Assembly (NCBI GenBank): GCA_016699145.1
Contig: CP064962.1
Location: 1,080,001 to 1,112,000, forward strand
Length of the DNA: 32,000 nt
Origin: Candidatus Saccharimonadota bacterium
GTDB taxonomy: Bacteria > Patescibacteriota > Gracilibacteria > UBA1369 > 2-02-FULL-48-14
Reading direction: 5' to 3'
Positions 25,626 to 28,800 of the stretch are shown here, in pieces. The translations under genes and the position numbers were made by a program. How positions within the stretch are numbered: the first letter of the stretch is position 1; every line of letters starts with the position of its first letter. The notes under the pieces were generated by a model. It did no database searches, was not told the origin of the DNA, and saw only the letters and a program-made list of their open reading frames with translations.

Positions 25626-25654
25626 TTTACAAAAATAAAATTTGATGCTACTAT
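25626..25654 (+). promoter_or_regulatory. internal sigma70-type promoter ahead of cluster gene E
   Basis: TTTACA (25626-25631), 17-nt spacer, TACTAT (25649-25654). Confidence 0.45.
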
Positions 25655-25660
25655 CACCCT

Positions 25661-25829
25661 CCTACGGTTCTCGTGATCCATGGATGGTGATTGTGAGGGG
25701 AGAGTCCGCCCAGCGTGCTGAGCTACTCCCTCCTCTCGCTCGAGAGGGCAGCATCACCCCCCAGCCATGATCCGTTGCCACAACCATTATCGGCTCACGC
25801 AAAAAAATCTCTTCCTCGGAGAAGAGATT
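25661..25829 (+). promoter_or_regulatory. GC-rich structured RNA element (unclassified leader or small RNA) with a terminal hairpin
   Basis: A long-range helix pairs 25675-25691 with 25753-25772 (about 14 bp). Inside it, GAGGGGAG (25695-25702) pairs with CUCCUCUC (25730-25737). That inner helix competes with a local hairpin CCUCUC (25732-25737) / GAGAGG (25742-25747). A terminal hairpin AAUCUCUUC (25806-25814) / GAAGAGAUU (25821-25829) covers GGAG (25818-25821), 8 nt before an in-frame GTG at 25830. Confidence 0.45.
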
Positions 25830-28800
25830 GTGCTCTTTGCTAGAACGCCCGATGACGACGATGACGGAGGCACTCCGGCCGGCGCAACACCCATCGGTGC
25901 AACGGCTGTGCCCAAGCTCATGAGAGGAAATGAGAACAGCAATATAAGGGTACCCAAGGAAGCGCGCGACAGGGCCGAGCACAAATCAAAGCTTTGGGAT
26001 GAGATGGCCCACATGGTGCCTGAACGGACCGAATATTTGCCACAGTTCACGACCGATGGAAAGAAGGTGGGACCTGGGGAAGGTAATGCCATGGAGATCA
26101 TGGAAGACTGGCTCAAAAGCCTCGCAGATGCCAATGAAATCCAAAGTTACATTGGGCGCATTTCTAAGTGGGAAGAAGAACTTAAGAATCCCGAAAAACT
26201 CACGGACGACACCGCCGTGCGCTTTAAAGACCGTTACAAAGAAGTCTATTCGGAATTGATGAGCATTCGAAAGTTGGCTCCCGCGATCCAACTGCCCGGG
26301 ATGGGCATCGATTACAAAGCCTTGGAAGCCAAAGCCAGGGCGCAAACGGAGCCCACCACCGCTGAAATTTTGGAAGATTTGGCCAAGTTTAAAAAAGCCT
26401 TGGTTGAACAGCGAAAAGTGGCTCTTGAACTGCTACACGAACGTGCTGTTCGTGACTTCGAACGGCGTTTAAACTACATCAAAAAGGAATGGGGAACCAA
26501 TCCTCCCAAAGGTTACGAAATAGGAAAAGACCAGTGGATAGCAACCTGTAATGCTTTCTTGGAAGAGGCACGAAAGATGCCCAAATTCGATTCAGACAAC
26601 CCCGACTTTCCAGAAGGATCGGCGGTTTTCGACCGCTTGAAACGTTTGTGGGGAGGGGTCAACAATTTGGAATTGAACCTAGCAAGTTTCCGCGAAGGTC
26701 AAAAAGAAGGAGGAGCCTTGAACGCGCAAGGTTTGAAAAATCGATTGGACGAAATCATCGCCAAAAAAAATAAGGTTTTCAATCAAAAAACTTACGGAGA
26801 AAAACACGATCAAAGCTTCGACGATTGGCACCACGGAATCATTAAGGATGTTTTGGCTCGCATCGATGAAGTCATCCCGCTTTACGAAAACCGTGTGAAG
26901 AACGAAGTGGGCAATCAATCAGCCGTCGATGAGTACTGCCACCTCAAAAATAACTTGGAAGAAGTCAGTGCGCAGGCAGAGGCTGATCCCAACGATGAAG
27001 CAATCAATACACAAAAAAAGAAACTCCAAAAAGAGGTGGAAGGCTTCGAAAGTCGACACCATCTCAACAAAGAAAAGATGGAAGTTTTGCAGCATTTGGC
27101 AGGGCTCAAAAGCTTACGTGGAAGCATAGAAAAGAGCGGAAACTTGGGCGAAATCTTTGAAAAGGCCATTTATAACAAGGAAACCTACCGCCCCGTAGAA
27201 GGAAACATCCCTTACCCAAAAGGCATTGAGGCACAGCTCGATTGGATTACAAAGGTGAACGTTTCCCCAGAGCAGCGCAATCAGATGTTCTTCCGTTTCA
27301 ATCAAGTCTTAGACACTTTGGACAAAGACATTGAAGGGGCTGAAAACTACGTCCAAACCAAGTTGGGTGTGAATTTATTCAAGAAAATCAACACTCTCAA
27401 ATACGACCTTGAATATAAGCCCGCTGAGAATAAATGGAAAATCCACTGGATGAGTGGCTTCAAAACTTACGACACTGTTGCCCACACGGTGACATCAATT
27501 TTTGAACGCAGCTGGAAGCGTGACGACCAACTCAAAGCGGGAATGTGGGGGAAGGAAGCCTTCAAGTTTTTGGACAAAGTCCCTATCCCTATAGACAGCT
27601 TAAAACCAATTCGAGAGTTGCATGCAGAAATGGCAAATGAAGAGGAACACGCCATGATGGAAGACATCAGCCATTGGTCCAAACAATACGAACACGCTTC
27701 CGTCGCTCACGTCACACACCAGATGCATGTGACCAAAAACAAGTTTGAATTCCGTGCTTGTATTGAACATCTGTGTAAGAAAGGGCTGATGCGTCTTTTG
27801 GACGATGAGGCATTCTTCAAGCAGCTCAATCGCTTTCAAACCAGCGTGAGTGTACCGGTCAGCAAATTTTGGCACAGCGAAAATCGTTTCGATTCTGAAG
27901 ACGTCATTAAGAAGGCAGTTTTTGCCATGTACGCCGACATCGACCTTTTCGACACCTGGCATTCCCAAAATTCGGGAGCCATTAAAAGTGAAGGAGGCAA
28001 ATACAATGAAGAATTCAGTCAAATCGCAAACGTACCTGGAGGAGTGTTCAAACTCGCCAAGAAATTACTGGATGATTACAAGCAAGACATCGCCAATCCA
28101 GCCAAACATGGTCAATCCGATATTGATCCCAACAAATACGAAGCAGCCCTCCATTATGCCATCGACAATGGGAAAATGAACGCCGAAGATGTGCTGTACC
28201 TTCTCTTGCAAGGTATAGCCTGTGGTCTTTTGTCTTTTGATCGCAGTGCCATCTTCACGGGTAAAAACAACAACTATCCCGCCATTGAAATTTTAGACGA
28301 TGCCACAGAAGATGGAAATGCAAAACCCACGCTTCAAAACATCAAGGAATGGGCCAAAATCGGAGAAGATTACGACAAAAACTACAATGAATATTTGGAT
28401 TGGTTCCACTCCTTTGTCATGACCAACGAAAAGGTCGTTCAGCGTGTCAACAAGGCCCAAAGCCAAGGTATGCGTTTCGACCACGACTACTTCACTGGAT
28501 TCGCCGGCCACCTCAACAGTAGTACCATCGAAAGCATGCTGCAGATGAAAGGAGACGGAGGTATGGGGCTGCAAGTCACTGCCATGCAAAACGGTGCGGT
28601 GGGTATGCTCTTCTCACTCGATTCCTTGGCGGAAAGTTACGGCGATTTGGGCAGCCGTGGGGGCGCCATTTTATCGCAAATGGTGGATTCCATCATCCGC
28701 TTCGATGCCATCCTCAATGCTCGAATGTATGCCAATCAAAGTCAGTACTACAAAATCGACAACGCAACCCTCAATGGTAATCCTCGTTATGCAGGAGCTT

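Follow-up and report, generated by a model that had tools for sequence, protein, structure and literature searches.

A conserved structured mRNA leader with competing helices, and its own promoter, ahead of a giant gene in Candidatus Peribacteria

Why should the gap between two genes be far better conserved than the coding sequence that flanks it? The question is raised by positions 1,080,001 to 1,112,000 of contig CP064962.1 (assembly GCA_016699145.1), the 32,000 nucleotides (nt) here called the window, where 150 nt separate the gene for a membrane protein of 794 amino acids (aa) (23232-25616, stop codon TAA) from the gene for a giant protein of 1226 aa (25767-29447). The neighbourhood is chromosomal and runs rpsF, ssb, rpsR, four genes without a Pfam or NCBIfam family, the gap, the giant gene and a convergent thrS. 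The answer offered here is that the gap holds a structured messenger RNA (mRNA) leader, real, conserved and not described before, which has a promoter of its own and in which two sets of helices compete; it is seen in one class of bacteria and, judged from the sequences compared, appears specific to Peribacteria. Its most likely role is to control how the giant gene is translated. In the fuller form of this reading, for which a probability of roughly 55% seems right, the gap would consist of a sigma-70-type promoter and a cis-acting leader of ~105 nt that serves as a Peribacteria-specific conformational switch on translation initiation of the 1226-aa gene.

Where else is the gap found? A first protein scan of the genome collection gave no relatives; scans with DNA patterns recovered them, adding nine GTDB species representatives, all named Candidatus Peribacteria, plus four metagenome contigs, and homologues of the 794-aa protein lie in metagenome-assembled genomes labelled Candidatus Peribacteria, Peregrinibacteria or 'Gracilibacteria'. 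Each of 21 distinct sequences of Candidatus Peribacteria, members of the candidate phyla radiation (CPR), has a single copy of the element per locus, with identical synteny throughout (single loci carry L numbers where they have to be told apart). Among the neighbourhoods of homologues of the upstream protein the gene order is kept and the gap is 150-270 nt long. Relative to the window the leader core has 70-90% nucleotide identity, while the downstream protein has only 20-41% amino-acid identity among relatives. One of the carriers, L009 (CAZWPE010000010.1), likewise recovered by the DNA patterns, is a 1.8-kb contig binned as 'uncultured Myxococcaceae' with a Peribacteria leader and gene start, and is probably mis-binned. 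A repeat or mobile element was also considered and rejected, as no second copy exists in the window, in 360 kb of loci or in viral contigs. The parts of the element, with a hairpin just beyond it, are as follows.

25626-25631, plus strand: -35 hexamer TTTACA, within the invariant ACTTTACAAA(A) and unchanged in 21 of 21 sequences
25646-25654, plus strand: extended -10 box TGcTACTAT (TG at 25646-47, TACTAT at 25649-54), with a spacer of 17 nt to the -35 hexamer
25653-25662, plus strand: E1, AUCACCCUCC, the 5' strand of helix P1 and the proposed anti-sequestor
25663-25681, plus strand: variable segment, forming a small hairpin inside P1 or an alternative pairing with the start region
25682-25691, plus strand: E2, GGAUGGUGAU, with the core GGUGAU at 25686-91, the strand common to P1 (with E1) and P1' (with E3)
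25686-91 with 25753-58, plus strand: P1', GGUGAU with AUCACC (E2:E3), found by RNAalifold, closing a three-way junction
25695-25735, plus strand: the long hairpin P2/P3, an arm that takes hairpin form in all 21 sequences and has double changes at three pairs
25695-705 with 25725-35, plus strand: P2, GAGGGGAGAGU with ACUCCCUCCUC, 11 pairs including a conserved A.C mismatch
25708-13 with 25718-23, plus strand: P3, from RNAalifold and pair counts
25732-37 with 25742-47, plus strand: alternative local hairpin CCUCUC / GAGAGG, with 85% of cells paired
25738-25749, plus strand: P4, GCUC-GAGA-GGGC (pairs 25738-41 with 25746-49), RNAalifold pair types UA 9, CG 7, UG 3
25753-25758, plus strand: E3, AUCACC, the 3' strand of P1', 8 nt before the ATG here and 2-20 nt before it elsewhere
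25767-25769, plus strand: start codon ATG of the 1226-aa gene, invariant in 21 of 21, with an upstream in-frame TGA at 25719
25801-25829, plus strand: a run of seven A then a 9-bp hairpin (25806-25829), inside codons 12-21 (QKNLFLGEE) and outside the leader proper

Is the promoter real? The blocks ACTTTACA and TGnTAnnnT are conserved at fixed spacing (17 nt between -35 and -10 in 20 sequences, 16 nt in L046), around a spacer whose sequence changes freely, and it is because hexamers and spacing are kept through such variation that the promoter is considered real. The -10 variants TACTAT, TACAGT, TACAAT, TAATCT and TATACT all keep the TG and the T-A-n-n-n-T positions, and within 18300-32000 this is the sole promoter site with the TG extension. 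A -35 hexamer and an extended -10 box at 16-18 bp, both conserved about a variable spacer, point to a candidate promoter of the sigma-70 type. The TTTACA-17-TACTAT promoter of an earlier note on this DNA, made from the letters of the window, is therefore borne out at the same coordinates and in relatives, with the TG of an extended -10 in addition. Transcription is predicted to start ~7-10 nt past the -10 box, at ~25661-25664. No terminator is present between the upstream gene and the leader.

Does the RNA downstream of that promoter have a structure of its own? RNAalifold, applied to 20 sequences, yields four helices, P1', P2, P3 and P4. On this named structure 90% of the cells are paired, versus 38-59% when the partners are slid by 1-3 columns. 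Double changes occur at four pairs, in P2, P3 and P4, and the covariation score was reached by 7 of 500 shuffles. In P2 compensation runs from G-C to A-U with G-U intermediates, a further P2 pair goes from G-C to A-U in L045 and L048, and the conserved A.C mismatch becomes U.G in L005, G-C in L023 and C.A in L046; the top pair of P3 also goes from G-C to A-U. The tip of P3 (25714-17) carries variable inserts elsewhere, of 4 to 26 nt, all of which fold as hairpins. The P4 arm forms a hairpin in 20 of the 21 sequences, variously as GCUC/GGGC, GCCC/GGGC, GCUCC/GGAGC, GCUCUC/GAGAGC and GCUUC/GAAGC. A covariance model, R1, made from 19 sequences, has exactly one plus-strand match per locus at 65-98 bits (in the window 25684-25769, 85.8 bits); it also detects L046 (29.5 bits) and L048 (64.8 bits), both outside its training set, and on the reverse strand it scores ≤20 bits, with no match in 21 unrelated loci. 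Folding of the window alone barely beats shuffles (z -0.8 to -1.95), and the case thus rests on comparison between genomes. The structured part, of ~75-105 nt in a leader of ~105 nt, adjoins the start codon in 21 of 21 genomes, and the leader structure may be called well supported, not proven. A conserved, structured and covarying 5' untranslated region (UTR) domain, one general mark of a riboswitch, is thereby found, its place in the UTR being deduced from the promoter and the invariant ATG.

The earlier note's suggestion of a conserved structured RNA before the giant gene accordingly survives, in 21 sequences and the matches to R1, and the collection of homologous intergenic regions that it had asked for shows the helices conserved, with those double changes. 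Its long internal helix exists too, though in a register that was off by 2 nt: P2 as listed is better supported, and the register GAGGGGAG / CUCCUCUC was rejected, having one pair mismatched in 11 of 17 sequences and no double changes.

What, then, of the pairings that exclude one another? As that note had observed, AUCACC occurs at 25653 and again at 25753, and both copies are complementary to GGUGAU at 25686-91, so that E2 may pair with E1 or with E3. E1 overlaps the final 2 nt of the -10 box and extends to the predicted transcription start; in every sequence it begins at the last 1-2 nt of that box, including L046 with its altered sequence. In L046 all three elements are altered together, E1 to UUCACAUC, E2 to GAUGUGAA and E3 to UCACAUC. 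In L037 the E1:E2 helix is a perfect 12 bp, in L025 its internal mismatch has turned into U-A, and L036 and L037 have an additional AUCAC(C) copy beside E2. Of the six P1' pairs only one varies, between G-C and G-U.

When 25661-25790 is folded to minimum energy, helices form between 25686-91 and 25753-58 and between GAUC(C)AUGG (25675-83) and CCAUGAUC (25765-72), matching the long-range closure of 25675-25691 with 25753-25772 proposed earlier. Together the two pairings are predicted to bury ATG 25767 and codon 2, and E1:E2 is predicted to form a local hairpin that leaves E3 and the ATG free. Partition functions were calculated over 20 sequences, with the start region taken as -8 to +5, for a long RNA beginning at -35 and a short one beginning at the predicted start. 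With E1 the mean probability of E1:E2 is 0.61 and that of E2:E3 0.21, the start region being 0.61 unpaired; from the predicted start site E2:E3 has 0.76 and the start region is 0.42 unpaired. The corresponding values for the window are 0.96 (E1:E2), 0.00 (E2:E3) and 0.76 unpaired with E1, and 0.83 (E2:E3) and 0.40 unpaired from the predicted start site. In 19 of 21 sequences the stretch of leader running from the start site to E2 can also base-pair with the ATG and the first codons after it (duplex folding, z -0.4 to -4.5), and the pairing can be compensatory: in L001, UACGAAU:AUUCGUA, a synonymous ATC to ATT change is matched by G to A in the leader. Others are AAUCCG:CGGAUU in L005, L009 and L047, GGAUCA:UGAUCC in L036 and GAAUC:GAUUC in L037. 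These long-range pairs between UTR and coding sequence do not appear in the RNAalifold consensus, probably because the region aligns poorly, and were recovered sequence by sequence through duplex folding.

A second exclusion lies within the domain, where the CCUCUC/GAGAGG hairpin excludes P4 and the four basal pairs of P2. Its pair 25732:25747 covaries, being C-G in ten sequences and U-A in six, and position 25732 covaries both with 25747 and with its P2 partner, in helices that compete. Strands used in two helices cannot covary freely, and this may explain why so many of the sequences are invariant. The mutually exclusive helices of the earlier note thus become two sets, E1:E2 versus E2:E3 and the base of P2 versus the local hairpin. 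Exclusive pairings tied to an expression signal, a second general mark of riboswitches, are found here in silico and by comparison.

Might the leader nonetheless be static, stabilising the 5' end, marking a site for processing or throttling translation at a fixed level, with E1 resembling E3 merely as a part of the promoter or discriminator? The weak z-scores of the window-only fold, the position of E1 upstream of the predicted start site and the majority of positions that never vary would all suit this. However, the joint change of E1 in L046, the 12-bp helix of L037 and the U-A of L025 are hard to explain unless E1 pairs, and 25732 covaries with partners in two competing helices, so that a leader without switching is judged unlikely.

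The first 25 residues after ATG 25767 are conserved as protein, with the consensus M..H.YR..QKN[LP]FLGEE..VLFANP in which M1, F16 and G18 never change and H7, R9, K13 and L17 hardly ever do; codon changes downstream of the ATG are largely synonymous. No Shine-Dalgarno sequence precedes any of ~50 genes examined in the window, L001 and L006, and no purine-rich one precedes ATG 25767; the lineage seems to use Shine-Dalgarno-independent initiation. The element had been proposed to end in a 9-bp hairpin partly burying a GGAG Shine-Dalgarno ahead of a GTG start. The hairpin exists, at 25806-25829, and recurs in most homologues (in L025 its purine strand and pyrimidine strand have traded places; the consensus predicts it weakly). 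It sits in codons 14-21 of the open reading frame (ORF), not in the leader, and the GGAG at 25818 belongs to adjoining Gly and Glu codons, while the codon aligned to GTG 25830 reads GTT or CTG in relatives. Because the ATG is invariant, the N-terminus is conserved and the lineage lacks Shine-Dalgarno sequences, the GGAG and GTG were wrongly assigned, and a leader sequestering a Shine-Dalgarno was rejected, there being none upstream of ATG 25767. The note had itself named a start at ATG 25767 as evidence against its proposal; that is the start found, and it overturns the terminal hairpin and Shine-Dalgarno part of the proposal, not the structured leader.

On the minus strand 25799-25829 has the form of a textbook intrinsic terminator, a 10-bp stem then T7, and the A run, hairpin and U-rich tail are kept in most homologues, even with different amino acids (L025); the minus-strand hairpin could halt antisense transcription ahead of the leader. 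In L049, the most distant operon found (upstream protein 30% identity), the gap is a mere 21 nt (2892-2914), the element is absent and the downstream protein has no alignable N-terminus; leader and conserved N-terminal peptide may have arisen together.

Could the gap itself be coding? From 25617 to the ATG the frame meets two stops, each a TGA, and relatives are sometimes labelled Gracilibacteria, for which reasons genetic code 25 (UGA = Gly) was considered, with the gap as an N-terminal extension; there is also a short ORF from ATG 25680, conceivably a regulatory upstream ORF or leader peptide. Against code 25, in-frame TGA is missing from the long ORFs of 1226, 794 and 602 aa, TGA is the stop of several genes, and reading on past the ends of mutS, a HAD-hydrolase gene and others gives junk. 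Against a leader peptide, the hairpin inserts are not multiples of 3 nt and the frame differs between genomes, an upstream ATG is missing from L005, and a stop/start overlap ATGA occurs in only 12 of 20 sequences. A coding gap is scarcely credible; both forms were rejected, and the gap is non-coding.

If the leader is indeed a switch on translation initiation, how would it work? The closed three-way junction, with E2:E3 formed, would hide the start codon and repress translation, since without a Shine-Dalgarno sequence ribosomes likely need an unstructured start region, and the open fold, with E1:E2 formed, would permit it. Because the predicted start comes only after E1, which itself follows the -10 box, transcripts from the internal promoter should lack E1 and would be closed by default; as no terminator follows the upstream gene, read-through transcripts with E1 must exist, and these would be open by default. 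The balance could be shifted by something that binds the highly conserved junction and helices, be it a small ligand or a protein (possibly an operon product), or by promoter choice itself. If the start-site prediction holds, internal promoter and read-through would yield differently folded leaders from one stretch of DNA. A bolder extension, tentative and less likely than not, is that this is a new class of riboregulator with its fold set by promoter choice, E1 being placed between -10 and +1 so that the read-through mRNA is translated and the short mRNA is a closed aptamer responsive to ligand or protein; if true, it would give CPR bacteria a first riboswitch-like element of their own, one that works wholly without Shine-Dalgarno sequences.

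Several points weigh against a conformational switch. With the start as predicted, E1 is missing from the promoter's own transcripts, which makes the role of a conserved internal promoter odd, and that start is a prediction from the position of the -10 box alone. The joint change of E1, E2 and E3 is known from one lineage, L046. The predicted occlusion of the start codon is moderate (0.42 versus 0.61 unpaired) and is missing in, for example, L009, L010, L037 and L045; the clade of L005, L009 and L047 is without the CAUGG:CCAUG pairing. Most helix positions are invariant, for which reason the formal covariation signal is modest, and the tool itself warns that related sequences can reach such a score without any structure.

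Two alternatives would dispose of the E1 puzzle: the start-site prediction may be wrong, or the motifs may be operator sites in DNA. In the latter case ATCACC, GGTGAT and ATCACC would bind a transcription factor, at O1 over the -10 box and start and at auxiliary sites downstream, with the RNA pairing incidental. E1 is exactly where a repressor might be expected to bind, and the three sites lie within 106 bp and changed jointly in L046. However, their spacing differs by tens of bp among genomes, which speaks against operators, each site spans a mere 6-8 bp, the other promoters of the window show no enrichment of ATCACC (18 observed versus 12 expected) and E2:E3 closes a junction whose remaining helices covary as RNA. 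DNA operators are accordingly regarded as very unlikely.

Granting a translational switch, what might it sense? A strict ligand-sensing riboswitch is a more specific version of the same reading: the junction of P1', P2/P3 and P4 would be an aptamer for a small molecule or metal ion, the binding of which would stabilise P1' and shut off translation. It has a junction with conserved joining nucleotides and a conserved A.C mismatch, a closing helix that overlaps the ribosome-binding region and, for a metal ligand, the His/Gly-rich tail (HHAHHGHGHGDDHGHDEHG..., 29280-29380) of the regulated protein, conserved in 8 of 10 close homologues, which makes a metal signal possible but unproven. Yet no known class is matched, metal riboswitches included, the helices conserve their sequence more than their pairing, a pattern commoner where a protein recognises the RNA or where alternative helices share strands, and the element is tied to a single gene family and known from one class of bacteria only. 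A strict riboswitch seems rather unlikely.

That near-invariance of the helices, despite proteins at 20-40% identity, leads to the thought of a translational operator, with the giant protein, another operon product or a general RNA-binding protein locking one fold through the invariant P2/P3 internal loop, in autogenous control. The same gene is always downstream of the leader, and the most distant operon, L049, is without it; against this, no RNA-binding domain is detectable in any operon protein. A protein-bound operator, too, seems rather unlikely.

Does the element belong to a family already described? Rfam 15 has no match at gathering score in the window, none at E≤10 in 25500-25950 and none at gathering score in ten homologous loci; the sub-threshold matches are miRNA or snoRNA noise, at E >3, and no known class is among them, metal riboswitches included. 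The earlier failure to place it in a known class was thus justified. A literature search found no paper on Peregrinibacteria riboswitches, and a broader one gave nothing specific to Peribacteria.

A resemblance to RNase P RNA had also been remarked, which would make the element a small RNA in its own right or a miniature ribozyme akin to RNase P. The likeness is one of 10-12 nt only, GAGAGUCCGCC versus GAGGAAAGUCCGGGC of CR-I (RF00010/RF00011), and a G(U)CCG/CGGCU pairing is possible. It does not extend further: no RNase P model matches, even at E≤10, nor in the ten homologous loci. The supposed CR-I, GAGAGUCC, is the 3' end of the 5' strand of P2, in which GAGU pairs with ACUC, and the supposed CR-V, at 25781-98, is codons 5-11 of the ORF, with its nucleotides unconserved and the stretch absent in L025 and L037. 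In size, in the want of a conserved CR-V/P4 partner and in its position as an mRNA leader, with no terminator ahead of the ATG and the structure abutting the start codon everywhere, it differs as well. RNase P RNA of type A, type B or archaeal kind was rejected, as there is no model match, no P4 formed from CR-I and CR-V and no independent RNA of ≥200 nt, and next to no credence is given to a ribozyme or free small RNA. Nor is it the attenuator that had been suggested, in that no terminator lies between structure and ATG: 25655-25766 has no GC-rich hairpin with U-tract, and transcription attenuation was rejected. The sole terminator candidate, 25806-29, lies within the ORF and has GUGCUCUUUG after it, and stem and U-run stand apart in homologues.

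With what known systems might a translational switch of this kind be compared? In translational riboswitches of the sequestor/anti-sequestor type, such as the E. coli thiM thiamine pyrophosphate riboswitch, one fold occludes the ribosome-binding region. The leader is like them in having a junction domain in the 5' UTR, a closing helix that shares a strand with an alternative helix, and a ribosome-binding region occluded in one fold. It is unlike them in that a start codon and its unstructured flank are occluded rather than a Shine-Dalgarno sequence, in that the anti-sequestor is between the -10 box and the predicted transcription start, and in that no Rfam family matches. In E. coli rpoS the start region is paired to an upstream segment of the leader and is opened by anti-antisense RNAs; here likewise an upstream segment pairs with the start region across a structured domain and opening needs a competing complementary strand, though that strand, E1, is in cis rather than in a trans-acting small RNA, and lineage and sequence are unrelated. 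Autogenous leaders of ribosomal-protein and other operons, for example the L20 and S15 operators, share with it a highly conserved structured operator right upstream of one operon gene and translational control via the start region, but the gene regulated here is not that of a ribosomal protein and no Rfam leader family matches. Orphan riboswitch candidates (motifs of the Breaker laboratory in Rfam) similarly have a conserved, covarying 5' UTR structure before one gene family; unlike them, the leader is absent from Rfam 15 and confined to Candidatus Peribacteria. By analogy, sequestor/anti-sequestor riboswitches and rpoS-type leaders would appear closest in mechanism, and orphan riboswitch candidates closest in the kind of evidence.

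Why does this matter? CPR bacteria, or Patescibacteria, cannot be cultured alone and have tiny genomes with few recognisable regulators, and to our knowledge almost nothing is known of how their genes are regulated. A leader with two exclusive folds is a concrete handle, which can be synthesised and then tested in vitro or by reporter fusion with no need to grow the organism, and would offer a clean case of translational control in a lineage without Shine-Dalgarno sequences. The signal it senses would also give a first clue to what the giant-protein family does. The giant protein has no match in Pfam, NCBIfam or PDB sequences, profile search included, and a word-indexed protein search returned the query itself and one fragment only. 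Its C-terminal domain of 540 aa defines a family of at least 403 clusters, mostly hypothetical proteins of 1000-1900 aa from Peregrinibacteria/Patescibacteria. At its 3' end the giant gene overlaps the convergent thrS by 4 nt (29444-29447), leaving no space for a terminator between them.

Some features elsewhere in the window deserve mention. TerC genes are often preceded by a yybP-ykoY manganese riboswitch; the window has a gene for a TerC-family membrane protein at 887-1579, where Rfam found no yybP-ykoY. A 19-nt direct repeat, TT(A/T)TAACAGATTAAAA(A/T)CT, at 16146-16164 and 19553-19571, is just upstream of a gene for a TrmB-like regulator and of rpsR, and at 17084-18389, directly before rpsF, is a gene for an AbiEii-type nucleotidyltransferase toxin with an upstream partner ORF. 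The gene mutS is split over two frames, with domains I-II at 10608-11375 (ending in TGA) and III-V at 11405-13249, which could reflect a frameshift, a pseudogene or an assembly error. Finally, 3770-8700 is an island of low GC content (32-40% versus 45-54% elsewhere) with a D12-class adenine methyltransferase gene and ORFs without assigned function; lying beside tRNA-Arg(CCT) at 2996-3070, it may be a restriction-modification or mobile island.

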